A stretch of DNA of 64,000 bases from a virus (taxonomy: Duplodnaviria > Heunggongvirae > Uroviricota > Caudoviricetes). The notes under the pieces are model-generated. The model worked only from the letters and a program-made list of their open reading frames with translations, did not search any database and was not told the origin of the DNA. Location: positions 1 to 64,000 of IMG/VR virus record IMGVR_UViG_3300007734_000754; one strand, given 5' to 3'. Positions 20,711-37,256 of the stretch are shown one piece after another; positions within the stretch are counted from its first letter, which is position 1, and each line of letters begins with the position of its first letter. The position numbers were made by a program, and so were the translations under genes.

Positions 20711-20726
20711 TTAAAACATCTAGATT

Positions 20727-21619: not shown

Positions 21620-21628
21620 TAATCACAT

Positions 21629-22179: not shown

Positions 22180-22262
22180 ATTAAAAAAAGTTTGTGAATT
22201 AGTTGCTAGTATGAATTATTATTCATATATTTAGGTAAGTTAATCAATTAAAACAATCAGTT

Positions 22263-23087
22263 ATGTTATCAAAATTCAACACAGGTTTAGATTCTTACCT
22301 TACAAAAGATCAAGTTAGAGCTTTAGCACCAGTAGCATTCGCTACAGAGCCAACTAGTAACAAAGTGAGTGACAAGTACTTACATGTTAACACAGAAACA
22401 ATCATCGACGACTTAGCACAGTTAGGATGGTTACCGGTAACAGCCTCTCAAAGAAAGGCTAGAAAGTCTGATAAGACTACAATCTTCTCCAAGCACATGG
22501 TATCATTTCAAAATCCAGATCTTATGATTAAAGGTAAGAATGGTGATGATGCTTTCCCAAGAATCATTCTAACGAACTCTCATGATGGATTTAATTCATT
22601 CCAGTTCAGAGTTGGTATCTACAGATTAGTCTGTTCAAATGGACTTGTAGTAGCTGACGAAGAATTCTCAGCATTTAGAATCCGTCACAAAGGATATACC
22701 TTTGAAGAATTAAGAGGTGTAGTATCTCAAGCAGTAGCTGATCTTCCAAATAAGGTACAGATCTTAAATCAAATGCAGTTAAGAGAATTAACTCCTGTAG
22801 AGCAAAGACAATTAGCTATCGATGCTATGCAATTGAGAACAAATAGAATCGATGCTGAATGGGATGAAGAAACAATCCAAGACGTTTTAACTCCTACAAG
22901 AGATGCTGATAAAGGAAATGACCTTTGGAAAGTATTTAATGTAATCCAAGAGAAGATTACCCAAGGAGGATACTCAGCAGCATTGAATGGTGCTAAAGTA
23001 AGAAAGGTTAGAAAGATTAAATCATTCGAGAAAGATCTAGAAGTTAATCAAAAGCTATTCAAGTTAGCAACAGCATTAATCAACTAA
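22263..23087 (+). CDS. DUF932-like phage/plasmid protein
   Basis: ILTNSHDGFNSFQFRVGIYRLVCSNG resembles the conserved core of the DUF932/TIGR03299 family. Confidence 0.35.
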   Translation: MLSKFNTGLDSYLTKDQVRALAPVAFATEPTSNKVSDKYLHVNTETIIDDLAQLGWLPVTASQRKARKSDKTTIFSKHMVSFQNPDLMIKGKNGDDAFPRIILTNSHDGFNSFQFRVGIYRLVCSNGLVVADEEFSAFRIRHKGYTFEELRGVVSQAVADLPNKVQILNQMQLRELTPVEQRQLAIDAMQLRTNRIDAEWDEETIQDVLTPTRDADKGNDLWKVFNVIQEKITQGGYSAALNGAKVRKVRKIKSFEKDLEVNQKLFKLATALIN

Positions 23088-23326
23088 TGGATAGAGCTAA
23101 ATACATAGAGATGAGAAAACTAGGCCAGTATGATCTGGCCTGGTTCTACCAATACTACCTGGAGCATAAGGATACCAATAGAGATACTTATCCCTTTGAA
23201 GTCTTTCAACAAGCATTCAATATGTACTTTCAATTTGCTGGAAAGTTTATTATAGAGTACCTAGACAAGAAAATGGAAGTAACAAAAATAGAAAATGAAC
23301 AAGGAAACTTATTATACATAAATTAA
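23087..23326 (+). CDS. hypothetical protein
   Basis: ATGG overlap. Confidence 0.4.
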   Translation: MDRAKYIEMRKLGQYDLAWFYQYYLEHKDTNRDTYPFEVFQQAFNMYFQFAGKFIIEYLDKKMEVTKIENEQGNLLYIN

Positions 23327-23328
23327 AC

Positions 23329-23568
23329 ATGGACGGAAAAGTAAAAACACCAAAGGAATTGATGGCAGACTTGAATGGAAATTATATTCAAGTAATTAAA
23401 AAAAATGGAAAGACTCATGACAGGTTATTTAAAGATCCTCAGAGAGCAATCAGAGCAGTTGGAGGAGTAGATAATGTAAAATACCTAAGAGAGGTATTAA
23501 AAGAACAAGTCAATTCGAAGTACACAGAAGTAGATTCATTAACAGGAACACCAGAAAACGAATTATAG
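23329..23568 (+). CDS. hypothetical protein
   Basis: ORF only. Confidence 0.4.
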   Translation: MDGKVKTPKELMADLNGNYIQVIKKNGKTHDRLFKDPQRAIRAVGGVDNVKYLREVLKEQVNSKYTEVDSLTGTPENEL

Positions 23569-23570
23569 TT

Positions 23571-23768
23571 ATGGAAAGATTAGGAGCAGTATTATCAGCA
23601 ATAGTATTACTTGCAATAGCAGCAATTATACTAGCATGGCCAACACAATTACTTTGGAACAATGCTTTAGTAGGAGCAGTGAATGGAATCAATCCAATAG
23701 GATTTTGGCAAGCATTAGGAATTAATCTTTTGTTTGGAATATTATTTAAGAATTCAAATAGCAAGTAA
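23571..23768 (+). CDS. small membrane protein
   Basis: Two TM helices. Confidence 0.4.
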   Translation: MERLGAVLSAIVLLAIAAIILAWPTQLLWNNALVGAVNGINPIGFWQALGINLLFGILFKNSNSK

Positions 23769-23769
23769 G

Positions 23770-23994
23770 ATGAAAGTAGTAATTAAAATTTTAGCAATAT
23801 TCTTGTTAGTAGCAGGATTAGCACAGCTAATAGATTTATCATTCTATTTGATGAATCAATCAGACACATATGTATTCTATTTAGGAATTGTATCATTAGC
23901 AGCAACATTTGTTGCATTTGGATTCTTAGGATTATATGCAACTAAGTTAATAACACCGGAAGACATTAAATCAACTAAAAAAGAAGAATTATGA
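23770..23994 (+). CDS. small membrane protein (internal ATG chosen)
   Basis: Two TM helices. Track ORF 23734..23994 overlaps the previous ORF. Confidence 0.4.
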   Translation: MKVVIKILAIFLLVAGLAQLIDLSFYLMNQSDTYVFYLGIVSLAATFVAFGFLGLYATKLITPEDIKSTKKEEL

Positions 23995-24362
23995 TATTTT
24001 TAATAGTTTTAGTAGCATTTGCAGCATTTGCTTGGGTAATAGCTGAATTATTTTTATTCTGTGAAGAAGGAACACCTCCTAAAGATTCAGATGTATTGGA
24101 AATGCTTGAGAAGTATAGTAATCAGTATAATAGCATTAGAGAGAATTATAGTAATAGCTATTACATTCAAGCTAGATCAAATTACCAGGTTAAAGAGATT
24201 CATAAAACCAAGTATAGTTTATTATTTCCTTATTACATTAGCGGTGTAGGAGTTATTCCAGTATGGTATAAATCAGCATCTCAAATAGAAACTTTATTTA
24301 AGGAATTGATAAAAGGTTCTGAGTTTGAAAATAAAAAGAGAAAAAAATTAGGATTAGATTAA
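23991..24362 (+). CDS. membrane-anchored hypothetical protein
   Basis: N-terminal TM. ATGA overlap. Confidence 0.4.
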   Translation: MIFLIVLVAFAAFAWVIAELFLFCEEGTPPKDSDVLEMLEKYSNQYNSIRENYSNSYYIQARSNYQVKEIHKTKYSLLFPYYISGVGVIPVWYKSASQIETLFKELIKGSEFENKKRKKLGLD

Positions 24363-24410
24363 AAAAGTTCGTATATTAATAAAAACAAAAATAAATTTAA
24401 AAATCAAGTT

Positions 24411-25250
24411 ATGAAGAAAATTTTAGTTATCGTAGCAGTAGTAGTAGGTATTTTCGCAATGTTTAGTTCATGCGATGTAATCAATGCCGGACACGTAGGA
24501 GTAAAAGTTGATATGTATGGCTCAGGTAAAGGAGTACAGAACGTAACAGCATGTACAGGATGGGTATTTTATAACCCTATCACAACAAAGGTTTATGAGT
24601 TTCCAACTTATATCCAGCATAAGGAGTATAAGAAGACAGAAGATGGAGATAATTCATTCACTGTAAATACTAAGGATGGTTCTGAGTTTAGAGTATCGCC
24701 AATACTAAATTACTCTGTTAATCCAGACAAAGCACCTTCAATCTTTGCAAAATATAGAAGAACGTTACCAGAGTTAGAGGAAGGATTCTTAAAGACAGCA
24801 ATATATGATGCATTCAGATTAGCAACAAATAAGTATACAGCAGAGGAATTAATATCTAATAGAGCAGTATTTGAAGTAGAAGTAAGACGATTGTTATCAA
24901 ATCAAATTACTAAAGAAGGATTTCTCGTTAATCAATTTACATCTAATCTAGAATACCCAGCTTCATTTAAGAATGCCATTAACGCTAAGAATAATGCAGT
25001 ACAAGCCGCGTTAACAGCCGAGAATCAGGTACAAACGGCAACAGCACAAGCTAAGATTAAAGTAGCAACTGCCCAAGGTAATGCCGAAGCATTATTGACA
25101 AATGCAAGAGCTGAGGCTGAGTCAAATAAATTAAGACAGTCTACATTAACAGCAATGCTATTGCAACAACAATGGATTGAGAAGTGGGATGGTGCTTTAC
25201 CAAAGACACAATTGGCATCAGGATCTAATACGATGTACGGCTTAAAGTAA
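24411..25250 (+). CDS. SPFH/band-7 (prohibitin-like) lipoprotein
   Basis: Lipoprotein signal MKKILVIVAVVVGIFAMFSSC followed by SPFH-like sequence (GHVGVKV...). C-terminal Ala/Gln-rich coiled coil. Confidence 0.55.
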   Translation: MKKILVIVAVVVGIFAMFSSCDVINAGHVGVKVDMYGSGKGVQNVTACTGWVFYNPITTKVYEFPTYIQHKEYKKTEDGDNSFTVNTKDGSEFRVSPILNYSVNPDKAPSIFAKYRRTLPELEEGFLKTAIYDAFRLATNKYTAEELISNRAVFEVEVRRLLSNQITKEGFLVNQFTSNLEYPASFKNAINAKNNAVQAALTAENQVQTATAQAKIKVATAQGNAEALLTNARAEAESNKLRQSTLTAMLLQQQWIEKWDGALPKTQLASGSNTMYGLK

Positions 25251-25337
25251 AAATAAATTGAAAATAATTGTAAAAAGGCTTGCTTTGGTAGGCCTTTTTT
25301 CATATATTTAGGTATAGAAATTAAAAAGAGAAAGATT

Positions 25338-26072
25338 ATGCCAAAAATATTTAAAGTAGGAGGATGTGTTAGAGATGGACTTCTAGGAGTAAAGACAAAA
25401 GATATCGACTTCACATTTGTATTAGAGGACCTAAACAAAACAGTTGAAGAAGGATTCAAAGAGATGGAACAATGGATGATAGATCAAGGATTTATAATCT
25501 TTCAATCAGTTCCAGAGATGTTTACAATCAGAGCTAAATTTCCAAGTGATCATAAATTTGCTAAATTGGATGCTGACTTTGTAATGGCTAGAAAAGAAGT
25601 CGGATACGTAGAAGGAACAAGACGTCCAATACTAGAATTAGGAACATTGGAAGATGATTTAGTTCGTAGAGACTTCACAGTCAATGCAATGGCTGAAGAT
25701 GAGGATGGAAATCTAATTGATTTATTTGATGGTATGTGGGCTTTAGAAAATAAGATGCTTCTCACACCTCTTGATCCAGCACAGACATTCTTAGATGATC
25801 CTTTAAGAATGCTAAGAGCACTTAGATTTTCAATCACTAAAGGATTTATAATAGCTCCTAAGGTTTGGGCAGCGATGTTTATTCCAACTCTAATTAATAA
25901 ATTGGAGGAGGTAGTAAGCGGAGAGAGAATAAGAGAGGAAGTTATAAAGATGATGAAAGCAGATACTGTAGCAACTCTACGACTATTGGCTGAAATTGAT
26001 AAAATAGAGCCTAGATTTGTAGAGGCTATATTTGGAAAAGAGATGTGGTTAAAACCAACATTCGAAAACTAG
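25338..26072 (+). CDS. CCA-adding/poly(A) polymerase-family nucleotidyltransferase, head-neck only
   Basis: KVGGCVRDGLLGVKTKDIDF matches the GGxVRDxLLG...DxD head motif. RDFTVNAMA...LID and DPLRMLRALRF match the neck motifs. At 244 aa it lacks the tRNA-binding body/tail. Confidence 0.65.
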   Translation: MPKIFKVGGCVRDGLLGVKTKDIDFTFVLEDLNKTVEEGFKEMEQWMIDQGFIIFQSVPEMFTIRAKFPSDHKFAKLDADFVMARKEVGYVEGTRRPILELGTLEDDLVRRDFTVNAMAEDEDGNLIDLFDGMWALENKMLLTPLDPAQTFLDDPLRMLRALRFSITKGFIIAPKVWAAMFIPTLINKLEEVVSGERIREEVIKMMKADTVATLRLLAEIDKIEPRFVEAIFGKEMWLKPTFEN

Positions 26073-26139
26073 GTAGTAATACAGTTGCTCTAAAACTCAG
26101 TACTATTTATAATAAATAATAGAACCACAAAATACATAA

Positions 26140-27417
26140 ATGGAGAATACATTTGATTTAAGAAAATTTTTAGTTGAAAATAAATTAACATATAATTCTA
26201 GACTTGTAGAAGGACAACAACTTACTCCTGAAGAGCAAAAAGCAGTAGATTATGTATTAGGTTTAGATGAAGGAGTAGTAGGTGATATAGTAAGTAGAGC
26301 TAAAGAAATAGCTAGAAAAGGATTACTAAAAGGAGCAGTACTTGCTACCTTACTAGCAACTCCAAATATAGCTCAAGCTCAAAAAACACAAATTCAGCAA
26401 ATAGCTTCTACAACAACAACAACAGCACCTACTCAAAAAGCAACTCCAGCAGCTGCTACATATGCTGCATCACCTAAGACAGTAGTGCCGGGAACAATTA
26501 AAACAGTTAACTTTACTCAAACTTTTGCAAGTGGAGAAGTATATTTAACAAACAAAGATGCATTAGCAAAAGAAATGGGTGAGTTACAAGCCTTTCTAAA
26601 AGGAAAAGATGCTTCTAAATTCAGAGTTGTAATTGTAGCAGGTGAATCTCAAGTAACTAATCCAAAAGGGTACGAAACTAAAGGTTCATTAGCACAAGCA
26701 AGAGCCAAAGCAGTTGAAAATGAAATAAAAGGTTTAAAGTTTAGTAATATCGATATTAAGACTGAAATAGGAACCACTGCTTATAAACCAGGTAATAATA
26801 TAGACGATCCTAAATATCAAGCAGAACAATTTGTTACTATAAACATTATAGCAAATAATGATATTTGTAGTATGCCAGATGTTGATAGAAATGAAGGGCA
26901 GGGAGTAGCTACAAATAACTATGTAACCTACGATGATTACATCAGTGGTGTAGGAGAATTAGTATTAGATACTGGTACAATACCTGATAGAATGGTTGTA
27001 TTGGACGCAAATGGTAATATAAAACAGGATACAGGTTACATAACTACCAAAACAAGTAAATATAAAGATTGGAAATACACACCAGCACATGTTTTAGCAT
27101 TGACAAACGCTTACATAGCCGGAAATGTATCGATGAAAGGTATTGATCCAAAAACTGTAATAACTGTAACTGATTACGATGATTTAGTAAAACAGATATC
27201 AAATACCGCTAAACCGGGAGTTATAGGAGATGAAATAGGGCCGGCATTAAATCAAATGAAAAAAATGATTTTGAATGGGCAGAAAGAATTTGTTATCTAC
27301 AATTTAGGAACTTCCGTAGCTAAATTGAAATTTGATCAAAATAAAGGAGAAGTTCAAGCTAAAGTATATTCACCTGTAGGTAAGACAGGTTACAATATAA
27401 AAGGTAGTTGTAAGTAA
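26140..27417 (+). CDS. secreted/anchored protein with N-terminal FDLRKFLVENKLTYNSRL domain, hydrophobic segment and Thr/Ala-rich linker
   Basis: Internal signal-like segment LLKGAVLATLLATPNIAQA, then TTTTTAPTQKATPAAAT low-complexity linker. N-terminal motif shared with ORF 974..1213. Confidence 0.45.
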   Translation: MENTFDLRKFLVENKLTYNSRLVEGQQLTPEEQKAVDYVLGLDEGVVGDIVSRAKEIARKGLLKGAVLATLLATPNIAQAQKTQIQQIASTTTTTAPTQKATPAAATYAASPKTVVPGTIKTVNFTQTFASGEVYLTNKDALAKEMGELQAFLKGKDASKFRVVIVAGESQVTNPKGYETKGSLAQARAKAVENEIKGLKFSNIDIKTEIGTTAYKPGNNIDDPKYQAEQFVTINIIANNDICSMPDVDRNEGQGVATNNYVTYDDYISGVGELVLDTGTIPDRMVVLDANGNIKQDTGYITTKTSKYKDWKYTPAHVLALTNAYIAGNVSMKGIDPKTVITVTDYDDLVKQISNTAKPGVIGDEIGPALNQMKKMILNGQKEFVIYNLGTSVAKLKFDQNKGEVQAKVYSPVGKTGYNIKGSCK

Positions 27418-27503
27418 AAATAATTTAAAAATAATTAAGAAAAGAGTTGCTAGTTCAACTCTTTTTTATTATCTTTAAGTATTATTAAAAACAAATAAGA
27501 GTT

Positions 27504-27935
27504 ATGAAAAAATTATTAGTACTGCTGTTATTAAGCACAGCAATGTTCTCACAAACAACTACGGTAAAAGGAATTACTTTATCTTATGATAAAGTCAGTC
27601 AAACAATGACATTAAGTATTCCACAAAACTCTATGAAGGTTCATAGTAAAGATGAACAGGTAAGAGTTGTAATCAATAAAGAGTATAGTTTAAAGAAGTA
27701 CATAGGAGGTCTTCCAGTACTAACATCAGCCAATTACTTTACACACGAAGGATACTTCTACTCTAATATGTCTTACTTTCAAACTAGTCGACCTAGTAAC
27801 AGTATAGTAGTAAAGAATAATCTAATCTTTAAGTTTACAGATGTAGAAAAAGGAGAATATGTTTTAGAGGTAAGTGATTTATGTGATTGGAAATGGGAGA
27901 GTAACGTAAATAGTAATTCATTAATAGTAAAATAG
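27504..27935 (+). CDS. secreted protein (cleavable signal peptide)
   Basis: MKKLLVLLLLSTAMFSQT signal peptide. Own promoter and terminator. Confidence 0.45.
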   Translation: MKKLLVLLLLSTAMFSQTTTVKGITLSYDKVSQTMTLSIPQNSMKVHSKDEQVRVVINKEYSLKKYIGGLPVLTSANYFTHEGYFYSNMSYFQTSRPSNSIVVKNNLIFKFTDVEKGEYVLEVSDLCDWKWESNVNSNSLIVK

Positions 27936-28005
27936 TCAACAAAAGAGTTGCTAGTGCAGCTCTTTTTTCGTATCTTTAAGTATTAGAAACAAACAAATAA
28001 AGGTT

Positions 28006-28173
28006 ATGGGAACAATTCTAAAAACATGGGTAGGTAATGAAGTTACGATGGAGCTTTATGCTACAAAGAAAGCAGCAGAGGCTGCAGGAAAGAAATTCAT
28101 AAGAGTACTGAGAGCTAGCAACAAGGAATGGGGTAGTGCAGGATGGGAAACAAAAAACACAAAAGATATATAG
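28006..28173 (+). CDS. small protein (55 aa, absent from the ORF track)
   Basis: Directly downstream of a canonical cassette promoter (variant TATCTTTAAGTAT). Confidence 0.35.
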   Translation: MGTILKTWVGNEVTMELYATKKAAEAAGKKFIRVLRASNKEWGSAGWETKNTKDI

Positions 28174-28174
28174 T

Positions 28175-28291
28175 ATGATACACGCAATAGTAGGATCAAT
28201 AGCATTAGGATGTGTCCTTGGAGGATTTATAATAGGCTTTGGATTGATCATTGAAAGTATAAAAAAGACTAATAAAAAGGGAGGGCGTTAA
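28175..28291 (+). CDS. 38-aa hydrophobic peptide (absent from track)
   Basis: MIHAIVGSIALGCVLGGFIIGFGLIIESIKK... single TM. Start lies 1 nt after the previous stop. Confidence 0.3.
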   Translation: MIHAIVGSIALGCVLGGFIIGFGLIIESIKKTNKKGGR

Positions 28292-28356
28292 TCTAATATT
28301 GTCACGCGCAAATTCTCCCAACCCCGGAGAGGTTGTTGGAGGTAAAATCTAGAAAA

Positions 28357-28557
28357 ATGGAGATGAAAAAGTTTTTAGAAATTTATTTAGGATTCTTTAC
28401 AGCACTACCATTGGCCTTTTGTATATTAGTATACTTAATAGGATGTTTTATATCATGGAGTATTCTCGAAGTAAACATACAATGGCCAATTGTTAGAGTG
28501 TATATGGTGATAGCTTTTATAGTATCAATATTTTTAGCAGCAGACGATCAGTTATGA
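28357..28557 (+). CDS. small membrane protein (ATG start chosen over TTG at 28333)
   Basis: Two TM helices. Confidence 0.35.
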   Translation: MEMKKFLEIYLGFFTALPLAFCILVYLIGCFISWSILEVNIQWPIVRVYMVIAFIVSIFLAADDQL

Positions 28558-28760
28558 AAAAGTTAATAGGAAGATTGTATTGGGAATTATCCAATCGAAT
28601 AGGGTATATAATCACTGTTAGAGACTATTATGATCCACAAACATTCACATTAAAGAAAAAGAATAGCCATTTAATATTATATAAGATCGTAAGTGAAACA
28701 GATAATGCAGGATGGAGAAAGCTAGAGGAAGTATACAGAATTCAAATCAAAAAGATATGA
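28554..28760 (+). CDS. hypothetical protein
   Basis: ATGA overlap. Confidence 0.4.
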   Translation: MKKLIGRLYWELSNRIGYIITVRDYYDPQTFTLKKKNSHLILYKIVSETDNAGWRKLEEVYRIQIKKI

Positions 28761-28984
28761 GTGATCAACCAGTAATGCATAGAGCATCATTTGAATTTTA
28801 CCAGGAAGGTAATACAGATGGAACAACAGACGAGACAGAGGAGTTAAAAATTGAATGTATGGGTATAGGAGATCTTACAGAAGGATGTTACTATGTCTTG
28901 AGAACACAAACAGGATGGTCAATAGATAGTCCAGAAGAACTAAAACAATTGGTTGAAAGAGTAGATAAAATGATGAAGTTATGA
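28757..28984 (+). CDS. hypothetical acidic protein (internal ATG giving ATGA overlap)
   Basis: Track ORF 28712..28984 trimmed. Confidence 0.35.
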   Translation: MSDQPVMHRASFEFYQEGNTDGTTDETEELKIECMGIGDLTEGCYYVLRTQTGWSIDSPEELKQLVERVDKMMKL

Positions 28985-29379
28985 TAATTGAAAATCATGA
29001 ATATATCTTAGATGACACCAAACGAGTAAATGTTGTTTGGAAGAAATACGATAAAGCTAATATTTTAGAAGTTGGTATCGAATACCCAACAGCAATAGTT
29101 GATATTGAAAGATTAACAGGTGTACCATTAAACGAAGAAGAACTTATCAATTTAGGTTTTGAGATTGTAAGATTTAGAGAACCTAAAATGCATGTCGGAA
29201 TAGATAGATTTTGGAAATTAGATTATGCTGTTATGCAAATTAACAAAGGCTCAGGACGTACAGATACCTTTTGTCTCAGATTTAATGATAAAAAGGTTGT
29301 TTTAGATAACTTTTACGGTGTTAGATTTGAATACGTTCATGAAATTAAACTATTATTAACTCTTATAAATAAGGTATGA
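28981..29379 (+). CDS. hypothetical protein
   Basis: ATGA overlap. Confidence 0.4.
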   Translation: MIIENHEYILDDTKRVNVVWKKYDKANILEVGIEYPTAIVDIERLTGVPLNEEELINLGFEIVRFREPKMHVGIDRFWKLDYAVMQINKGSGRTDTFCLRFNDKKVVLDNFYGVRFEYVHEIKLLLTLINKV

Positions 29380-29493
29380 TGATTATTATTTGGTTGATAC
29401 TTTTACTAGGAGTAACAAGACATATAGGCTTAAGAGGAGGAAGACAAATTCCAATGCCTCCAAAAAACAAACCTAAAAACAAAAAGGTATGAA
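29377..29493 (+). CDS. 38-aa membrane peptide, translationally coupled on both sides (absent from track)
   Basis: MMIIIWLILLLGVTRHIGLRGGRQIPMPPKNKPKNKKV. ATGA overlaps at both ends. Confidence 0.3.
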
Positions 29494-29869
29494 GCTAGCA
29501 GTAATAGCACACGATGGTAAGAAAGCAGACATGGTAGCTTTCATAATGAAAAGACTTGAGTTTTTTAGTAGAGTAGATATAATTGCTACAGGTACTACAG
29601 GAAGACATATTGAACATGCAGGACTACAAGTTCAATGTTTAAAATCAGGACCATTAGGAGGAGATGCACAAATTGCTTCTATGATAGCAGATGGGCAAGT
29701 TGATGGTGTTATATTTTTTATTGACCCACTAGATGTTCACCCACACCAGGTGGATGTAAATATGCTATTGAGAATTTGTAATGTATACAATATTCCATTG
29801 GCTACCAATTATAAGACAGCAGTTTATGTTATAAATGGATTACAAACAAAATTGAATAAAAAGATATGA
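29489..29869 (+). CDS. mgsA: methylglyoxal synthase (MgsA)-like protein
   Basis: IAHDGKK, ATGTTG, SGPLGGDAQIASMIADGQVDGVIFFIDPL..HPHQVDVNMLLRICNVYNIPLATN align along the whole MgsA fold, including the catalytic Asp (AHD) and His-rich region. Confidence 0.6.
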   Translation: MKLAVIAHDGKKADMVAFIMKRLEFFSRVDIIATGTTGRHIEHAGLQVQCLKSGPLGGDAQIASMIADGQVDGVIFFIDPLDVHPHQVDVNMLLRICNVYNIPLATNYKTAVYVINGLQTKLNKKI

Positions 29870-30126
29870 CCGTAAGAGAACTAATACAAAGTCTAAGTAA
29901 GATAGAAGACCAAGACATAAGAGTAATGGTAAGAGGCTATGAAGGAGGAGTAGATGATATAGTAATAGGAAATGGTATAGATAATAATACTATAGTAATT
30001 CCAGCAATACAGTATGTAGCCTTAGATGTAAATACGGAATGGTATTACGGTACACATGAAATAGTATATAATATGTACGGGGGTATTAATAGCAATTACC
30101 ATATAGTAAAAGCAATAGTTCTATAG
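29866..30126 (+). CDS. hypothetical protein
   Basis: ATGA overlap. Confidence 0.4.
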   Translation: MTVRELIQSLSKIEDQDIRVMVRGYEGGVDDIVIGNGIDNNTIVIPAIQYVALDVNTEWYYGTHEIVYNMYGGINSNYHIVKAIVL

Positions 30127-30660
30127 GCTAGATACCCGTTTGTAACCCGTTCCGATACCCAATTCGTTACCCATTCCATACCCGTTTCTGTCCCCGTTTT
30201 ATACCCGTTTATACATACGTACGTACCTGGAGAGATACATGGAGAGACATAGAGAGAACTACTGAGAAACATAGTAAAAGGTTAATGACTTTGGCTAAAC
30301 ATAAAGAGTAGTAAAGACCTAGGAAGAGTATAAAGACATATAGTACTTGGTATGAAAAGGTACTGTATATGATATACGATGTGTAGTAAAAGGAATAGGC
30401 TAGGGTAGAATTAGTATAGGAAAAATGAGGGGGATGTGCCTCCCTAATAACTTTTCTCTATAATAGGGGTTGTCTATGACTCTATAGACCCGTTCTAGCT
30501 ACCCATTTGTAACCCGTCCCTATAGACGACAGGGAGAGAGTGTAAGGAGAAACCCGGTTTTGGTACCCATTTGTAACCCGTTGATAGACCCGTTCTAGTG
30601 ACCCGTCCGGCTACCCGTTAGAGACCCGTTCTGTAACCCGGGAAAAAACCCAAAAAAGAG
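30127..30660. repeat. noncoding iteron region: about 18 ACCCGTT-like motifs in two clusters phased at about 11 bp, flanking a purine-rich spacer
   Basis: Motif positions: 30134, 30146, 30158, 30170, 30180, 30192, 30203 and 30487, 30501, 30512, 30552, 30566, 30577, 30588, 30601, 30612, 30623, 30634. No ORF longer than 60 aa. Confidence 0.6.
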
Positions 30661-30709
30661 TTGCTAGACTGAAATAAAGTTCTTATCTTTAGGTATCAAT
30701 AAGAAAGAT

Positions 30710-30925
30710 ATGGAAAAACTGATAGAATTAAACGAGGTAGTTGGAAAGGATTGTTCCTGTAATGGATCCCCTACCCTAAGAGCTAAACTGGTTAGTGTGG
30801 GTGAGGAATGGTGTATCCTAGAAATCACTCCAAGGGTATACTCCAGGGATGAATCCAAGGACGTATTTATTGGTAACAGAGTTAGGGTTAGTACATCCTA
30901 TGCCTATAACCTTTATTATGCCTAA
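30710..30925 (+). CDS. hypothetical protein
   Basis: Canonical cassette promoter upstream. Confidence 0.4.
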   Translation: MEKLIELNEVVGKDCSCNGSPTLRAKLVSVGEEWCILEITPRVYSRDESKDVFIGNRVRVSTSYAYNLYYA

Positions 30926-30926
30926 T

Positions 30927-31070
30927 ATGAAAACAATCCAGGTCACTCTCCAGGAGAGGTGGGCAGCCTCCAGGCACAAGGTCCACAAGTCAAAAAAATC
31001 CTACACCAGGAAAAACAAGCACAAAGAAAAAGGGCCCTCCAGGCCCTCTCTTTTTTTCAAAAAAATTTGA
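30927..31070 (+). CDS. possible 47-aa highly basic peptide; alternatively noncoding structured RNA
   Basis: Lys/Arg/His-rich translation. The region is unusually GC-rich with three CTCCAGG repeats and contains the bidirectional terminator. Confidence 0.2.
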   Translation: MKTIQVTLQERWAASRHKVHKSKKSYTRKNKHKEKGPSRPSLFFKKI

Positions 31071-31135
31071 GTATAAGGTACCGGCCCGTCTACTCTTCCG
31101 ACTCTCTTTCAAAGCCAGGCCCCTTATATATCTCC
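31025..31135 (-). ncRNA. candidate small RNA 1 (about 110 nt), minus strand
   Basis: Minus-strand canonical promoter (AGTTGCC, about 20 nt, CGTATCTTTAGGTAC; plus-strand coordinates 31144..31190) points left. Transcript ends at the bidirectional terminator. No ORF. Confidence 0.45.
31032..31060. terminator. bidirectional intrinsic terminator (GGGCC-CTCCA-GGCCC) with A-run upstream and T-run downstream
   Basis: Perfect 5-bp GC stem flanked by A5 on the left and T7 on the right. Confidence 0.6.
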
Positions 31136-31223
31136 CTCTAACGTACCTAAAGATACGAACTATTCTCCATATAGGCAACTTTTTTACAAACTTTTTTTAT
31201 TTTTTTTTTAGACAGCAGAACAT

Positions 31224-31280
31224 GGTGTACCGGACCGTCTACTCTTCCGACAGTATTGCAGTGCCAGGCCCCCTATCTCT
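31224..31280 (-). ncRNA. candidate small RNA 2, minus strand, paralog of sRNA 1
   Basis: Second copy of the GTACCGGnCCGTCTACTCTTCCGAC...GCCAGGCCCC unit with its own minus-strand promoter (TTTG, then CGTATCTTTAGGTA at 31288..31301). 3' end undefined; may read through into sRNA 1. Confidence 0.35.
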
Positions 31281-31433
31281 TTGATAGTACCTAAAGATAC
31301 GGAGAATAATTCATACTACAAACTTTTTTAGTAACTTTTTTTTAATTTATAATGAGTATAAATAACGAAATAAAGTTGGAGCCTATTATCTTATTTCCTA
31401 TCTTTAGGTATCAATAATTAAAACATAGAAAAT

Positions 31434-31829
31434 ATGATCAACACAATTCAAAGTTTAAACGTAGTAAATATGATTGGAGATAGAAAAGGTATCTTCCAGG
31501 CCATTACAAAAGTACCAGCAGGCTTTATGTCAGCATATGAGATAGGATCTGAATTACCTTCTCTTAATAGATGGAAGAAAGGAGCTCTTCAAACAATTCA
31601 ATTCCAGCCTGAAGGATCTAATGCATGGCTTACAGTATTTGCTAGAAAAGGTACTAAGGTACTTATAATGGATCTTCAGATAGCTGAGCAATTGGAAGTA
31701 GGAACAGTTAATCAATTGTTTTCTAATACAAATCTTTATGATCAGAATCAATATCAATCAATGAAAGCTAAAACATGGGCTGATAAAGTTTTTGTTATTA
31801 ATAAACATAACTTAGAAAAAAGTTGCTAG
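31434..31829 (+). CDS. hypothetical protein (cassette gene)
   Basis: Promoter + leader + ORF + agttgctagttc terminator. Confidence 0.45.
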   Translation: MINTIQSLNVVNMIGDRKGIFQAITKVPAGFMSAYEIGSELPSLNRWKKGALQTIQFQPEGSNAWLTVFARKGTKVLIMDLQIAEQLEVGTVNQLFSNTNLYDQNQYQSMKAKTWADKVFVINKHNLEKSC

Positions 31830-31881
31830 TTCCCTTTCTTTTACTTATCTTTAGGTATTAATAATTAAAACATCAATAAAA

Positions 31882-32058
31882 ATGAAACATCCAAATTATC
31901 CAAAAGCAACAAATCAGTATTTAGGTAGTACAACTACTAAACCTTTAAATCAATCTTCCAAAGAAGCTCTAGATCAAAATCTATTAGAATTTAGAATTAG
32001 GTTAAATGGAATTATTGCTAGAAAAGAAAAGGAAAAATTAGAGAAAAAAAGTTGGTAA
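31882..32058 (+). CDS. 58-aa small protein (absent from track)
   Basis: ATG at canonical distance from the cassette promoter at 31845. Terminator gttgcctcttcggaggcaa follows. Confidence 0.35.
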   Translation: MKHPNYPKATNQYLGSTTTKPLNQSSKEALDQNLLEFRIRLNGIIARKEKEKLEKKSW

Positions 32059-32131
32059 AAAAGTTGCCTCTTCGGAGGCAATTTCTTATCTTTAGGTATC
32101 AAAATAAATTAATAACTAAAAACTTAAAATT

Positions 32132-32416
32132 ATGTCTAGATTAGAATTGATTGCTCAAGTAAAAAGTTTAAATGTTCAAACTGCAAAACCAGCTCACATG
32201 ATGAAGACTGAAGATCTTCAAGCATTAGTTGAGAAGTACATTAAGGGTGCAGAGGTAAAAGAGATTACAATGAAATCCAGAATCTTAGAATTTTCTAAGG
32301 AAGGAAAAACTACAAAAGAAATTAAAGTACTTTTGGAGGAAGAAGGTTGGGCTTCAAAAATGAAGTGTGGAAAAATCCGTCCAATCTACATCAATTTAGT
32401 TGTAAAAAATAACTAA
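32132..32416 (+). CDS. hypothetical protein (cassette gene)
   Basis: Own promoter and terminator. Confidence 0.45.
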   Translation: MSRLELIAQVKSLNVQTAKPAHMMKTEDLQALVEKYIKGAEVKEITMKSRILEFSKEGKTTKEIKVLLEEEGWASKMKCGKIRPIYINLVVKNN

Positions 32417-32491
32417 AAAAAGTTAGGAGATTAGTTGCTAGTCTCCTTTCTTTTACTTATCTTTAGGTATTAGTAATCAAAATATATAATC

Positions 32492-32749
32492 ATGCAAAAA
32501 GGAACAGTTACAGGAGAAGTAAAAAGAATCTTAAAAGATTTAGGGGTTCATTATGATGCTGTATTCTCTGACAAATATGGAGAGGATAGAGTAGGAGCTA
32601 AATTTTGTCAAGTTTATTTAACTGACGAACAAAGACAAGTTGTAAAAGAAAAAATGGAACAACAAGGATTTACATTTCACTTTATTAAAGAAAATGTAAA
32701 TAGTTATTCTTTTTGGAATGGAACAAGGTTTTGTTTTAGTAAAAATTAA
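32492..32749 (+). CDS. hypothetical protein (cassette gene)
   Basis: Own promoter and terminator. Confidence 0.45.
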   Translation: MQKGTVTGEVKRILKDLGVHYDAVFSDKYGEDRVGAKFCQVYLTDEQRQVVKEKMEQQGFTFHFIKENVNSYSFWNGTRFCFSKN

Positions 32750-32830
32750 TTAAAAATAAATGAAGAAAGAGTTGCTAGTTCAATTCTTTCTTCGTATATT
32801 TAGGTATTAATAATTAAAACATATACTATT

Positions 32831-33088
32831 ATGATCGTAGAAAATCTTTTAAAGGAAACTTCAAACAAAAAAATCTTCTCTGTAACTTTTATTAAAAAGG
32901 ATGGAAGTCTTAGAAAAATGAATGCTATGAGAGGGGTTAGAAAAGGAGTAAAGGGAGTTGGACATTCTTTTGATCCATCTGAGAAAAATTTATTAACTGT
33001 ATATGATATGCAGAAATTAGATTTCAGATTTGTTAATCTAAATGAAATTATTTCGTTTAAAGCTAACAGAAAAAGTTTCAAAAAATAA
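32831..33088 (+). CDS. hypothetical basic protein (cassette gene)
   Basis: Own promoter and terminator. Confidence 0.45.
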   Translation: MIVENLLKETSNKKIFSVTFIKKDGSLRKMNAMRGVRKGVKGVGHSFDPSEKNLLTVYDMQKLDFRFVNLNEIISFKANRKSFKK

Positions 33089-33098
33089 TTGTTAAAAA

Positions 33099-33140
33099 AG
33101 TTGGTACCTGAAGATATATTTCGTATCTTTAGGTATCAAT
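33099..33140 (+). promoter_or_regulatory. representative cassette promoter
   Basis: aaGTTGGtacc, 20 nt, TTCGTATCTTTAGGTATC. ATG at 33160. Confidence 0.55.
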
Positions 33141-33159
33141 AATTAAAACATATAACATT

Positions 33160-33366
33160 ATGAAAAATTCATTACAGTCCTTAGTAGGAAAAGAAGTACA
33201 GATCTACCCAGGAGATTCTCAAAAGAAAAAAGGAATCTTATTAGAGATCTCAGAGCAAGGTTTTTTATTTAAAATTACCTTCTATTCAGGAAATGATAGT
33301 CAGTATGAAGTAGGTAAGTTACATTTTATAAGTAAAAATAATTTACTTTCTTTTAAAGAAATTTAA
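33160..33366 (+). CDS. hypothetical protein (cassette gene)
   Basis: Own promoter. Confidence 0.45.
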   Translation: MKNSLQSLVGKEVQIYPGDSQKKKGILLEISEQGFLFKITFYSGNDSQYEVGKLHFISKNNLLSFKEI

Positions 33367-33432
33367 AAAATAGTTGCTCGTTTAAATTATAGTTCGTATA
33401 TTTAGGTATCAATAATTAAAACAATATAAACT

Positions 33433-33726
33433 ATGGGTTATTCAAGTATGTTATTAGGTAAAGGTTTTAACCAACCTTATCGTTCTGTAAATGAAATTGT
33501 CGAATTTTTAATCGATAATCCATTTCGAACAGAATCTGAAATTCAAGAACAAGTTTTTAGCTATTACAGAACTTCAACTTGGGAATCAAACAAGAAATAT
33601 GCCGACATGTTAAGACGAGGTCTTGACAAAGGTCTGTATAAGAGAATTCTATGGAAAACTAAATCCGATAGTAGAAGTCTATACCGTTATTATGTTCCAA
33701 CTTCTGTTAAAAATAATTTAAAATAA
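33433..33726 (+). CDS. hypothetical protein (cassette gene)
   Basis: Own promoter. Confidence 0.45.
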   Translation: MGYSSMLLGKGFNQPYRSVNEIVEFLIDNPFRTESEIQEQVFSYYRTSTWESNKKYADMLRRGLDKGLYKRILWKTKSDSRSLYRYYVPTSVKNNLK

Positions 33727-33787
33727 AGTTGCTCGTTTAAATTATAATTCGTATATTTAGGTATCAATAATTAAAACATATAAAAAC

Positions 33788-34057
33788 ATGAGTTTATTAT
33801 CTACTGCAAAACAAATTTTAATTGACGGGGCTATTGAATTGTATGAAATGAGAAGATCTGATTTAGATTTAGATGTTCTTTCATATCAAAATCATTATTC
33901 AAATTTAGGAGCTATTATTTTTCAAATCGATAAATATGAATCTCTCGGAGATATCATAAACGATATGGAAAAGGATAATCTTCAGGAATTGGGATATTTC
34001 GGAGGAGATGATTTTTTACTTGATGAATTCTTGAAAAAAGTTAGGGAAAATGTTTAA
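33788..34057 (+). CDS. hypothetical acidic protein (cassette gene)
   Basis: Own promoter. Confidence 0.45.
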   Translation: MSLLSTAKQILIDGAIELYEMRRSDLDLDVLSYQNHYSNLGAIIFQIDKYESLGDIINDMEKDNLQELGYFGGDDFLLDEFLKKVRENV

Positions 34058-34122
34058 AAAAAAGTTGCCTCTTCGGAGGCAATTTCTTATCTTTAGGTAT
34101 CGATAATTAAAACATATAAAAG

Positions 34123-34329
34123 ATGAAAGTATTTTTATACAATGCAAAGACGGGAGAGTCTAAACTTTCCGGAGCAGATCAAAATGGTAAAGTTTATCAA
34201 GGTTATTTAGCCGAAGGATTTGAACCCTTAGCTCTTATTCATGGGTTTAGTGTTACTACTTATCCTTATACCAATGAAATGAATAAGGCTTGGTTTGAAG
34301 AAAAAAGTTGTGATTTTATTAAAAAATAG
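34123..34329 (+). CDS. hypothetical protein (cassette gene)
   Basis: Own promoter. Confidence 0.45.
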   Translation: MKVFLYNAKTGESKLSGADQNGKVYQGYLAEGFEPLALIHGFSVTTYPYTNEMNKAWFEEKSCDFIKK

Positions 34330-34388
34330 TTGCTAGTTTAAATTATAATTCGTATATTTAGGTATTAATAATTAAAACATATAAAATC

Positions 34389-34595
34389 ATGAAAAGTCAA
34401 GCAGTACAATTATTAGAGAATACAAATTATCTAGAAACAGTAATCGAAGAATGTAAAGGACAAGAGTCAGAAGAGCAGTTATATACTATCTTTGAGTATC
34501 TAAATGATCTAGACAATTATCAATTAGGAAATTCCTATTCAGCATTGATGAAGCATGCAAAGACAGTTCAAAATTATATTAAAAAGAATTGTTAA
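34389..34595 (+). CDS. hypothetical protein (cassette gene)
   Basis: Own promoter. Confidence 0.45.
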   Translation: MKSQAVQLLENTNYLETVIEECKGQESEEQLYTIFEYLNDLDNYQLGNSYSALMKHAKTVQNYIKKNC

Positions 34596-34659
34596 AAAAG
34601 TTGGTACCTAAGTATAAAGTTCGTATATTTAGGTATCAATAATTAAAACATATAAAATC

Positions 34660-34956
34660 ATGGCTAAAAAAACTTATCAGGACACGGACGGAACGTCATT
34701 TAACGGAGTAACAATTCGAGCAACAGTTGAGCAATTAACAAATGCTTTTGGAGATCCAACTATGGATTCAAATTGGGGAGATGATAAAGTGAATTTCGAA
34801 TGGGAGATGGAAACTGATGAAGGGGAAGTATTTACAATTTACGATTGGAAGGAAGGTCGTCCTTTGAGATTGGATGAATACATTACATGGCATATTGGGG
34901 CAAGGAGTAAATCTGTTGCAAATGATGCTGAGAGAGAAATATTGAAAAAACTTTAA
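34660..34956 (+). CDS. hypothetical protein (cassette gene)
   Basis: Own promoter. Terminator ggccc-ttcg-gggcc follows. Confidence 0.45.
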   Translation: MAKKTYQDTDGTSFNGVTIRATVEQLTNAFGDPTMDSNWGDDKVNFEWEMETDEGEVFTIYDWKEGRPLRLDEYITWHIGARSKSVANDAEREILKKL

Positions 34957-35023
34957 AAAAGGGTTGGCCCTTCGGGGCCTTTTTCTTATCTTTAGGTATC
35001 AATAATTAAAAACAGCAAATAAT

Positions 35024-35167
35024 ATGAAACGTAATTTCACACCAAAAAGAATTTTCAGAGATCATTTTATTATGATACATTCATTCAAAATATTAGGAGT
35101 TTATATTCCTTTATTGATTACTTATTTTAACTTTGGTAAGCGTTACTATTTTAACTTAAAAAAATAA
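35024..35167 (+). CDS. 47-aa small protein (absent from track)
   Basis: ATG at canonical distance from the cassette promoter at 34985. Confidence 0.3.
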   Translation: MKRNFTPKRIFRDHFIMIHSFKILGVYIPLLITYFNFGKRYYFNLKK

Positions 35168-35172
35168 TGTTA

Positions 35173-35298
35173 TGGAAAATCAAGAAAGATTTTACGAGTG
35201 GATGTTAGCGATGGGGAATATTCATTTGGCTAGTAATGAAAAAATGGCTAAAGCATATGAAGCAATTGCTAAGAGTGATGCTAAAATAAATAAAAAAT
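35173..35298 (+). CDS. 41-aa small protein (absent from track)
   Basis: Second short ORF in the same transcription unit. Confidence 0.25.
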
Positions 35299-35371
35299 AA
35301 TTGTTAAAATAGTTGCTAGTTTAAATTAATGTTCGTATATTTAGGTATCAATAATTAAAACATATAACATT

Positions 35372-36154
35372 ATGACAAGATTAAATTTATTAGAGGATCA
35401 AAAAGCAATCCTTACAGCTCAAAAAGAAGTATTAGAAAACAAAAGAGGAGACATCTATGTAAGAGAGCAAAAAGCAATCTCAGATGCTTTGCTTCCTTTC
35501 TTCTCAGATTTTCCTAAAGAAGTAGAAGTTGAAGTAGTAAGAGGGTCTGTTTACTTTAAAATGGATCATCCAGAAGTAAAGTACAAGAAAGAATTATTCA
35601 ATCTTTATTTAAGAGAGGATTATGATTTCGAGAATAGTAAGAAGTCTTATAAGGGAGTTGATTTATCTTACTATACAACTTCAACAAGAGGAGTTGATGA
35701 GTGGGAGTTAAGAAGATTAAGAATGCTAGGAGATTTAGCAGATATTGTTTTGAAAGAACAAGACAATATAGTTGATGCTGCAAATAATGCTGTTGAATCT
35801 TTCAAAGCAGAATATGCTGAGGTGTATAAGGAAATGCAAGAAATTGGAAGTGAGATTAGAGGAGTTGATCAATTGATTGCTTTCTTAGAAAAAGAAAAAA
35901 TTGAATGGGATTTGAAAGATGAAGGAGTAGAGTTTAATACAGGAATGGGTATTCAATTAAAGTATAATTATACTCCAGTTGTAGTATGGGTTAAATTAAC
36001 TGATGTTTCTAAATCAGGAAAGAAAGGTACTGCAGTCTTTAAATGGGCTCATGGAGGAAGTGAATCTAGAGAAGAAAATATAAATGTTAGTTCCATAATT
36101 GATCAAGTTCATGGAAGACGTAAAAGCATTATTCAGCAAACTTTAGCTGAATAG
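35372..36154 (+). CDS. hypothetical protein (largest cassette gene, 260 aa)
   Basis: Own promoter. Terminator gggctcc-gttata-ggggcc follows. Confidence 0.45.
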   Translation: MTRLNLLEDQKAILTAQKEVLENKRGDIYVREQKAISDALLPFFSDFPKEVEVEVVRGSVYFKMDHPEVKYKKELFNLYLREDYDFENSKKSYKGVDLSYYTTSTRGVDEWELRRLRMLGDLADIVLKEQDNIVDAANNAVESFKAEYAEVYKEMQEIGSEIRGVDQLIAFLEKEKIEWDLKDEGVEFNTGMGIQLKYNYTPVVVWVKLTDVSKSGKKGTAVFKWAHGGSESREENINVSSIIDQVHGRRKSIIQQTLAE

Positions 36155-36284
36155 TTTTTAATTATTGATCGAAGAAAGGGCTCCGTTATAGGGGCCTTTT
36201 TGGGTTAAAATAGTTTGTAAAATAGTTGCTAGTTACAATCTTTATTCGTATATTTAGGTATCAATAATTAAAACATATAACATT

Positions 36285-36470
36285 ATGCAAATAGAAGATT
36301 TAAGAGGACAAGAGTTTATTCATTTCAAAGATGATTCAATTATCTACATTGTAGGTAAAAGTAAAGATGGTAGATGTATTATTCATTGGAAGGGTGAAGC
36401 AGATACAGCCGTCTATAGAGATGAGCAAGTAGTTGATTTTTTCGAAAGAGAAATTTGGATCCTATACTAG
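36285..36470 (+). CDS. hypothetical protein (cassette gene)
   Basis: Own promoter. Confidence 0.4.
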   Translation: MQIEDLRGQEFIHFKDDSIIYIVGKSKDGRCIIHWKGEADTAVYRDEQVVDFFEREIWILY

Positions 36471-36564
36471 CCTCAGAAACATTGCTAAAAATAGTTAATA
36501 AAAAAGTTGCTAGTTACAAAGTTAGTTCGTATATTTAGGTATCAATAATTAAAACATATAAAAA

Positions 36565-36810
36565 ATGAAAAATTTAGTAGAAGTTAATTTAAGGGATGTT
36601 AAAGAAGAAGTTACTTATTTAGTTCATGTAAGTGAATATGAACGATATGGAGATAATGAAACTTATTTGTTAAAAGGAAATGGAAAGGAAGTTTTAGAGT
36701 ATATAAAGGATAGGGTTGGATTTGATGATGATGAAGATGAAGATTTATTTACTTGGTTTGATGAGAGTAATGGGGATGGGGATGATTTAATTAGTATTTT
36801 TGAAGTGTAA
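36565..36810 (+). CDS. small highly acidic protein (DNA-mimic candidate)
   Basis: C-terminal half is FDDDEDEDLFTWFDESNGDGDDL. Confidence 0.4.
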   Translation: MKNLVEVNLRDVKEEVTYLVHVSEYERYGDNETYLLKGNGKEVLEYIKDRVGFDDDEDEDLFTWFDESNGDGDDLISIFEV

Positions 36811-36896
36811 AATTAATTAAAAAAAGATTGGGAATTAGTTGTTAGTTCCCTTTCTTTTTACTATCTTTAGGTATCAATAATTAAAACATATACATC

Positions 36897-37193
36897 ATGT
36901 CAAAAGAAAAAACATTTATTATCGAATCAGCTAGATCAGGAGGATTTATGTCTTCAAGACCAACAAGGTATTCTTATGCAGAAGGTACTCTAGAATATCT
37001 TATAGGGTATCATAGTTATACTTTAGAGTGTGGTGCTTCATGGCAGCATGAAAGAGGGAATAAGAAGGTAAATTGTAATCCAAAGACAGCAGCAGGCTTA
37101 GTTAAGAGCTTAAACATTGCTACAAACAACTCTGCTGCTAATGGATATTCAGGAACTTCCTATCAATTAGTTACAGAAAAAAGATCAGAATAA
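36897..37193 (+). CDS. hypothetical protein (cassette gene)
   Basis: Own promoter. Confidence 0.45.
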   Translation: MSKEKTFIIESARSGGFMSSRPTRYSYAEGTLEYLIGYHSYTLECGASWQHERGNKKVNCNPKTAAGLVKSLNIATNNSAANGYSGTSYQLVTEKRSE

Positions 37194-37256
37194 AGTTGCT
37201 CAATTGAATTAAATTTCTTATCTTTAGGTATCAATAATTAAAAATAGTAAATCATT

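Follow-up and report, generated by a model that had tools for sequence, protein, structure and literature searches.

Methylglyoxal synthase (MGS, EC 4.2.3.3; gene mgsA) frees inorganic phosphate (Pi) from dihydroxyacetone phosphate (DHAP) and is considered important under phosphate limitation (PMC11850910). The enzyme of Escherichia coli is inhibited by 0.3-0.5 mM Pi (PMC11850910; PMC4133812). Its phosphate allostery follows two routes, a salt bridge between Asp20 and Arg150 of the C-terminal helix, used for cooperative inhibition, and a path through Pro92, Arg107 and Val111; Thermus MGS, which has no such tail, shows a Hill coefficient of 1.5, versus 3.4 in E. coli (PMC4133812). MGS is usually seen as a risky safety valve of bacteria, opened only when phosphate runs short and sugar phosphates accumulate. 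In the literature we found no functional or evolutionary study of a viral mgsA, only a passing automated listing (PMC8066274).

Here we describe an mgsA gene in a 64,000-nucleotide stretch of viral DNA (Caudoviricetes; IMG/VR record IMGVR_UViG_3300007734_000754, positions 1 to 64,000), called the window hereafter. The open reading frame (ORF), listed at 29489..29869 on the + strand, starts with ATG and encodes 126 amino acids (aa). A reading of the DNA sequence by a model, referred to below as the original prediction, had proposed that it is an MgsA homolog carried by a phage, an unusual auxiliary metabolic gene (AMG) lying in the early region.

Family assignment and active site of the phage enzyme

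A search with Pfam PF02142 (MGS), the check that the original prediction had suggested, gave a match at E 1.5e-15 and 57.5 bits (cut-off 24.1). The whole protein also passed two NCBIfam equivalog models, NF003559 (162.6 bits versus a cut-off of 84) and TIGR00160 (151.8 bits versus 146.9). With phmmer, 11 distinct sequences were matched in the PDB and all 11 were methylglyoxal synthases, the top one being that of Thermus sp. GH5 (2x8w, E 6.9e-35, residues 3-120 aligned). PHROGs held no family for the protein, its best match there having an E of 0.0013. An AlphaFold2 monomer model, made from 29 homologues (pLDDT 85.3, pTM 0.79), has the alpha/beta fold of MGS in a standalone single domain, whose 126 aa fall inside the MGS length class of ~120-155 aa. 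When this model was compared with the PDB by Foldseek, the top 26 structures were all authentic MGS (TM 0.77-0.81, 41-53% identity), from B. subtilis, Thermus, Borrelia, E. coli, Thermotoga and Elizabethkingia. Below these true MGS came carbamoyl-phosphate synthetase (CPSase) and PurH, whose MGS-like domains show 16-18% identity and a TM of ~0.6.

The ORF was confirmed in this way, by sequence and predicted structure, as a methylglyoxal synthase, the match being far beyond chance. This part of the original prediction was borne out by the equivalog models, the PDB matches, the model and the conserved residues described below, and every motif that it had quoted is present in the 126-aa ORF. The end-to-end alignment with MgsA that it had claimed holds for short-form MGS (Thermus, 126-132 aa), but not for E. 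coli MgsA (152 aa), relative to which both termini are shorter.

Residues were numbered after a sequence that we take to be the E. coli MgsA reference, used for this purpose only. Alignment revealed that the phage protein keeps the catalytic set Asp71 (the base), His98, His19, Asp101, Asp20 and Asp91 (phage D59, H86, H8, D89, D9 and D79), the phosphoryl-binding set Lys23, Thr45, Thr47, Thr48, Ser65 and Gly66 (phage K12, T34, T36, T37, S53 and G54), and Pro92 (phage P80). All these 13 functional residues are invariant across 48 distinct viral MGS sequences. Conversion of DHAP to methylglyoxal and Pi by the phage enzyme is well supported as a prediction, and it is very probable that what the phage carries as an AMG is an active MGS.

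The alignment column of Arg150 is a gap in 48/48 viral sequences, and the tail that follows the P-x-A-T-N motif is 15-22 residues long in viral MGS versus 33 in E. coli. The second allosteric route is kept, with P80 and R95 invariant (equivalents of Pro92 and Arg107) and V99 (Val111) present in 47/48 viral sequences. By alignment, the phage enzyme is a short-form MGS without the C-terminal Arg150 helix. It is probably only weakly cooperative towards phosphate, because the Arg150 region is missing as in Thermus MGS. A 126-aa MGS without the Arg150 tail also offers a compact variant for studying MGS regulation. Near-invariant residues specific to the viral clade described below (M20, K21, R22, L23, F25 and F26) are clustered on helix alpha1, together with H40, A44 and Y108 elsewhere; regulation or partner binding specific to phages could take place at the alpha1 surface patch (MKRLxFF).

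Phage context, clade and selection

The window matches Flavobacterium phage vB_FspM_immuto (immuto), a 160-kb Flavobacterium myophage of the genus Immutovirus from the Baltic Sea, in patches of ~83% nucleotide identity. It also carries genes for a baseplate wedge subunit, for gp25 and for glycosyltransferases of phage type. Around mgsA, local BLAST revealed synteny on the left (window 28174-28357, immuto locus 11734-11926) and on the right (window 30134-30465, immuto locus 13422-13799). The ~1.8 kb between these flanks, which hold mgsA, have no immuto counterpart, and immuto has no MGS gene. Among viral contigs with mgsA, the closest two (L002 and L003) have it in the same slot, followed by the same downstream genes. 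The GC content of mgsA (0.339) and that of its third codon positions (GC3, 0.189) equal the values of bona fide phage genes. These comparisons confirmed the window, at the sequence level, as a genuine segment of an Immutovirus-like Flavobacterium myophage, and phage carriage, as originally proposed, was upheld by the identity and synteny with immuto, by the synteny with viral contigs and by the baseplate and gp25 genes. By the same comparisons, mgsA and the 86-aa ORF that overlaps it form a cassette in a hypervariable syntenic slot.

An IMG/VR scan with six 8-residue words taken from the phage protein returned 102 relatives sharing 63-95% identity. Searched in 185,579 bacterial and archaeal species (one genome each), the same six words returned a single relative, a Spirochaetota metagenome-assembled genome with 46% identity, exact words being a criterion by which cellular members that do not have them could be missed. 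A large protein database contained many clusters at 77-98% identity to the phage MGS, all of them metagenomic. Of 1.84 billion representatives searched exhaustively with HMMER, three had 57-65% identity, all other full-length matches were at or below 54%, and a few fragments reach 62-86%. Among the 50,697 INPHARED records, which include the cultured phage immuto, none carries this MGS clade; 22 records have an MGS match, in unannotated contigs at 37-51% identity, outside the clade.

A neighbour-joining distance tree was made from 48 distinct viral sequences and 78 standalone representatives. The viral sequences form one compact clade, joined only by the representative P0154, whose own surroundings are phage-like. 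Across 100 bootstraps, the smallest clade that contains every viral sequence had 48-52 tips in 92 of them. Identity between the viral clade and anything outside it does not exceed 58%, and phage-type genes also surround P0156, the best representative from outside. Seven long representatives of 270-660 aa (P0157, P0158, P0163, P0164, P0174, P0178 and P0187) have two or three stretches that are MGS-like, or join MGS to other sequence; they may be tandem or fusion architectures, or run-ons of gene calling.

Related viral contigs were viewed over ±10 kb around mgsA, and the present phage over 64 kb of ~160 kb. Every clade context inspected was phage-like, including those of relatives on contigs of 191 kb and 226 kb. 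Dense small ORFs are accompanied there by T4_Y16D, DUF5872, ClpP, thymidylate synthase and NUDIX genes, and further by genes for nucleoside deoxyribosyltransferase, 2OG-Fe oxygenase and SLT. On other backbones, large flanking ORFs aligned over their full length with PHROGs for a phage helicase, a phage GroEL and an AMG-type carbamoyltransferase. The sharing of flanking genes sorts the viral mgsA loci into at least nine backbone groups. The gene mgsA is common to 86 loci, and any gene flanking it in the window to at most 11. Taken with the tree, this places mgsA in a distinct and widespread phage-resident MGS clade, apparently unreported. The original prediction had called the gene an unusual AMG. 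That is so with regard to INPHARED, but more than 100 uncultured viral contigs carry the gene, and its novelty is reduced by the automated AMG survey of the Lake Baikal virome, which already lists a viral mgsA (PMC8066274).

No neighbour of mgsA is universal, the ORF directly downstream of the viral gene belonging to more than 25 unrelated families. Thymidylate synthase is found within 1.5 kb of mgsA in 9/48 dereplicated loci, and helicase in 7/48. In five IMG/VR contigs of 270,136-271,290 bp from five independent samples (L046-L049 and L054), the gene directly after mgsA is a phrog_2488 DNA helicase, and their sizes suggest that these ~270-kb contigs are complete genomes of one jumbo phage. 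In nine viral loci (L074, L076, L077 and relatives, at 1-17 nt after mgsA; L051) the downstream ORF resembles a calcineurin-type metallophosphoesterase, as assigned by eye from its DxH...GD...GNHD motifs. If true, this would place a second phosphate-releasing activity next to MGS.

Between the window mgsA and its six closest homologues, the ratio of non-synonymous to synonymous substitution rates (dN/dS) was 0.045-0.09, with a dS of 0.5-0.9. MGS identity is 90-94% where common flanking ORFs average 39-66%, and 48 of the 126 positions are invariant in the 48 distinct viral sequences. The high MGS identity reflects constraint and not a very recent transfer, because a dS of 0.5-0.9 goes with a low dN/dS. 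These estimates indicate strong purifying selection on the phage mgsA and no transient capture. Recent capture from the host was rejected on composition, dS, the genome scan and the 45% identity to a Flavobacteriales MGS.

The predicted mgsA transcription unit and other features of the window

A promoter-like intergenic element of ~50-80 nt, GTTG(C/G)-N~19-TAT(A/C)TTTAGGTA, was found in 31 copies by a regular-expression scan of the window. All 31 lie within 20.6-39.6 kb (20668-39641) and none elsewhere in the 64 kb; 29 are on the + strand (examples are 27947-27982, 30660-30695 and 33373-33408), and the repeat families D2-D6 coincide with the element. Flavobacterium sigmaA promoters have a -7 box TAnnTTTG (PMC9723704), of which the repeated element is a near-consensus match, with TTG ~20 nt upstream. 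The element is usually followed by ATCAATAATTAAAACATATA and ATG, and nearly all small ORFs in the central part of the window have it in front of them; in some copies a GC-rich hairpin (GCCTCTTCGGAGGC) lies between both boxes. Promoters of the sigma-70 consensus were also considered and were rejected, with 16 sites versus 17.3 in shuffled sequence and no excess, the relevant promoters being of the Bacteroidota type. The element set probably represents the early promoters of the phage, Bacteroidota sigmaA-like in kind.

The copy nearest upstream of mgsA (GTTGCTAG...N...TATCTTTAAGTA, 27947..27982, +), a putative promoter from the same scan, is followed on the + strand by a series of small ORFs from the ORF list. 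The first of the unit (28006..28173, 55 aa) has no Pfam or PHROG match. The next (28333..28557, 74 aa) is small and hydrophobic, probably a membrane protein, with a weak PHROG membrane-protein match (E 0.0096). ORFs of 68 aa (28554..28760) and 90 aa (28712..28984) have a counterpart in no related locus, and an ORF of 132 aa (28981..29379) is common to 0/86 loci. The stop of the latter overlaps, in an ATGA, the start of a candidate ORF of 38 aa (29376..29492), the translation of which (MMIIIWLILLLGVTRHIGLRGGRQIPMPPKNKPKNKKV) has a hydrophobic N-terminus and a basic tail, and the TGA of this candidate overlaps the ATG of mgsA. An 86-aa ORF with no Pfam match and a marginal PHROG match (29866..30126) is joined onto mgsA by a further ATGA overlap, so that such overlaps chain four consecutive ORFs, from 28981-29379 to 29866-30126.

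A consensus scan placed the first + strand terminator-like hairpin with a T-rich tail after the unit, a predicted terminator, at 30428..30455; there is no + strand terminator-like site from 27982 to 30428, and the next copy of the element is that at 30660. We infer a polycistronic unit of ~2.4 kb, which would be transcribed by the host RNA polymerase and expressed early, since a host-sigmaA-like promoter implies transcription by the host polymerase. The early region of the original prediction is plausible in this respect, mgsA being inside the sole part of the window with the 31 sigmaA-like elements, and the early timing itself is deduced from the promoter type.

Homologues of the 86-aa ORF occur downstream of mgsA in four immuto-like loci (L002, L003, L005 and L007), at 48-62% identity. 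The ORF directly overlaps mgsA in the window and in L002, L003 and L005, and in L007 and L008 mgsA is separated from the homologue by an unrelated 74-aa ORF. In B. subtilis, MgsA is inhibited by Crh, a protein of ~85 aa. A Crh-like obligate partner was considered for the coupled 86-aa ORF and rejected: the ORF has no HPr or other Pfam match and is present only in the immuto-like group, and the position after viral mgsA is taken by the more than 25 unrelated families mentioned above.

Directly after the mgsA cassette, ~520 bp of non-coding DNA (30134-30630) contain 12 of the 19 ACCCRTT heptamers of the window, all 12 on the + strand and in two clusters (30134-30209 and 30488-30630). A total of 19 matches was reached by 0/100 shuffles, and the stretch is 82-85% conserved with immuto. 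It is an iteron-like array, possibly a replication origin or a set of sites for a regulator. Further on, 31027-31342 holds two tandem units of ~145 bp (31051-31127/31200-31276; 31143-31198/31287-31342). In each of them the promoter element recurs once on the minus strand (31144-31179 and 31288-31323), and a minus-strand terminator-like hairpin lies at 31051-31027. These units are candidate small RNAs, antisense to the general gene direction. They gave no Rfam match and no tRNA, and Rfam found nothing in the repeat-rich non-coding DNA of 30000-31500.

The left arm (~2600-18480) encodes a sugar pathway typical of the synthesis and transfer of nonulosonic acids (pseudaminic/legionaminic type). 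It comprises NeuB, a PseB-like Polysacc_synt_2 protein, a class-III aminotransferase, a cytidylyltransferase, epimerases/dehydratases, GNAT acetyltransferases and three family-2 glycosyltransferases; similar genes are annotated in immuto. An ORF block at 23579-27935 has no nucleotide counterpart in immuto, and holds ORFs at 23991-24362, 24411-25250, 25338-26072, 26140-27417 and 27504-27935. That at 26140-27417 (425 aa) has a weak, sub-threshold OmpA-like match, and the 244-aa ORF at 25338-26072 is common to 11 otherwise unrelated mgsA-bearing viral loci, at 46-52% identity.

Proposed role in infection and comparison with known systems

We propose that early in infection the host RNA polymerase would transcribe mgsA from the sigmaA-like promoter at 27947-27982 as part of the polycistronic unit. 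The phage MGS would then convert DHAP to methylglyoxal and Pi in the infected cell and thereby open the methylglyoxal bypass of glycolysis. The likeliest selected benefit would be that phosphate bound up in triose and sugar phosphates is set free; a second one, related to it, would be relief from the build-up of sugar phosphates once host biosynthesis stops. Carbon flux and Pi would stay available for the nucleotide and DNA synthesis of the phage in phosphate-poor waters. The position of mgsA near thymidylate synthase or helicase in other phages (9/48 and 7/48 loci), among nucleotide and replication genes, speaks for this proposal. Taken as a whole and weighted towards its core claim, an active MGS carried by the phage, we find the explanation somewhat probable. 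Phosphate or sugar-phosphate relief as the specific payoff is favoured over the other readings, though tentatively and at less than an even chance. The original prediction had offered relief of sugar-phosphate stress, redirection of glycolytic flux and growth arrest as possible roles, and the present evidence draws no firm line between them. Promoter function, early timing, activity in vivo and physiological payoff are all read from the predicted features.

Several points weigh against the explanation. Methylglyoxal is toxic, and the DNA and protein that it damages would include those of the phage. With a small DHAP pool, any net gain of phosphate would depend on continued flux, and phosphate inhibition, if retained, would confine activity to low-Pi cells. 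The gene appears dispensable, because immuto, the closest cultured phage, does without it. Next to mgsA, no AMG for phosphate uptake (pstS or phoH, for example) was seen. No glyoxalase family was among the Pfam families listed (25 of 33) for the ORFs of the window at 1-45.8 kb, and phmmer with E. coli GloA, GloB and YajL, a search of low sensitivity, gave no glyoxalase or DJ-1-type match in the window or across 97 loci (±10 kb). The exact-word basis of the cellular scan counts on the same side.

The main rival to phosphate and triose-phosphate relief is that methylglyoxal is a weapon, which arrests host growth and macromolecular synthesis or poisons competitors and superinfecting phages, the Pi release being incidental. 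Methylglyoxal is indeed a strong toxic electrophile (PMC11850910). The gene lies among small early-type ORFs, of the host-takeover kind, behind host-type promoters, the insensitive search just mentioned found no detoxification partner near any viral mgsA, and loss of the Arg150 allosteric tail could mean a weaker restraint by phosphate. The strong selection on catalytic residues is required by a toxin as well. However, methylglyoxal would harm the DNA and proteins of the phage too, hosts usually possess detoxification systems, the phosphate-binding residues through which Pi inhibits are fully conserved, and the thymidylate synthase and helicase neighbourhood in other phages fits a metabolic role better. 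We consider toxic host arrest rather unlikely. Carbon or redox rewiring, in which triose phosphate is diverted to D-lactate or 1,2-propanediol so that glycolysis is uncoupled from ATP and NADH and carbon or reducing power is steered elsewhere, appears improbable. Phages are known to carry central-carbon AMGs, which counts in its favour. The methylglyoxal bypass does lead to D-lactate or 1,2-propanediol (PMC4133812), but no downstream enzyme of the bypass is encoded near any viral mgsA, and a route without ATP yield fits poorly with the energy demand of a 160-kb phage.

Two further explanations would remove the gene from phage metabolism altogether. The gene could be a passenger or an artefact, either host sequence that was wrongly assembled into the contig or a host gene captured recently and without a role in the phage, as might be thought from its hypervariable slot and its absence from immuto, the closest cultured relative. 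Yet both flanks are syntenic with phage genomes, base and codon composition are phage-like, and a dS of 0.5-0.9 at a dN/dS of 0.05-0.09 points to long residence under constraint. No close cellular relative came out of the word-based scan of 185,579 reference species, and cellular MGS are ~41-53% identical, the Flavobacteriales enzyme at 45% among them. We judge this explanation very improbable. Still less credence is given to a protein that is not an MGS in function, either a regulatory or binding MGS-like domain of the kind known from carbamoyl-phosphate synthetase and PurH, or a moonlighting protein with no catalytic activity. PF02142 is admittedly a broad "MGS-like domain" family, but the equivalog-level models were passed and the equivalents of catalytic Asp71, His98, His19 and Asp101 are invariant. 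The original prediction had named an MGS-like domain of another enzyme class as the alternative that would overturn it; this was excluded, because CPSase and PurH reach only 16-18% identity and a TM of ~0.6 (true MGS, 41-53% and 0.8), the catalytic residues are present, and the protein is standalone and of MGS length. Jointly, the artefact and non-catalytic explanations are given at most a very slight probability.

Beyond these, large aquatic phages might keep an ancient MGS lineage without the E. coli-type cooperative phosphate brake as a "phosphate tap and metabolic brake", Pi and the toxic electrophile both serving infection. This idea is speculative and we hold it to be doubtful; if true, a virus that deliberately makes a reactive dicarbonyl would be without precedent. 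That a conserved MGS is found in more than 100 large uncultured phages on several backbones would mean that control of triose phosphate and phosphate, or methylglyoxal itself, repeatedly pays off. The gene is a testable candidate for the way in which phages handle phosphate limitation or host shutdown in fresh and brackish waters.

Among described enzymes, the closest to the phage MGS are the short-form bacterial ones, namely those of Thermus sp. GH5 (TMGS, 2x8w/2xw6), T. thermophilus (1wo8) and B. subtilis (MgsA, 6f2c). They are alike in length (123-137 aa versus 126), share 48-53% identity with it at a TM of ~0.8, have the catalytic and phosphoryl-binding residues in common with it and, like it, have no C-terminal Arg150 helix (PMC4133812). 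The phage enzyme differs from them in being phage-encoded, in its clade-specific alpha1 residues, in having V88 where most cellular MGS have Pro100, and in having no conserved Crh-like partner. With E. coli MgsA (1b93/1egh) it shares 41-42% identity, the 13 functional residues and the equivalents of R107 and V111, from which the same reaction is predicted, but it has neither the first ~11 residues nor the C-terminal Arg150 helix. The MGS of Elizabethkingia anophelis (6phe), the only solved Flavobacteriales enzyme, has the same family and fold, but it is 161 aa long and 45% identical. It is no closer to the phage MGS than the Thermus and Bacillus enzymes, which argues against recent capture from the host lineage.

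The viral mgsA of Lake Baikal is likewise annotated as a methylglyoxal synthase on a large freshwater viral scaffold (120 kb). It was mentioned without sequence, evolutionary or functional analysis, and it is likened to the window gene by its automated annotation alone (PMC8066274). Both the enzyme family and the AMG concept are known, and the advance is incremental unless the physiology proves unusual, because the enzymology is ordinary and the gene had already been flagged by that survey. The pstS, phoH and central-carbon AMGs of cyanophages are host-type metabolic enzymes under purifying selection in lytic phages. Like the phage mgsA, they presumably sustain nucleotide synthesis. Unlike that of other phosphate or carbon AMGs, however, the predicted product of mgsA is a toxic electrophile, and the carbon would leave energy-yielding glycolysis instead of boosting biosynthesis.

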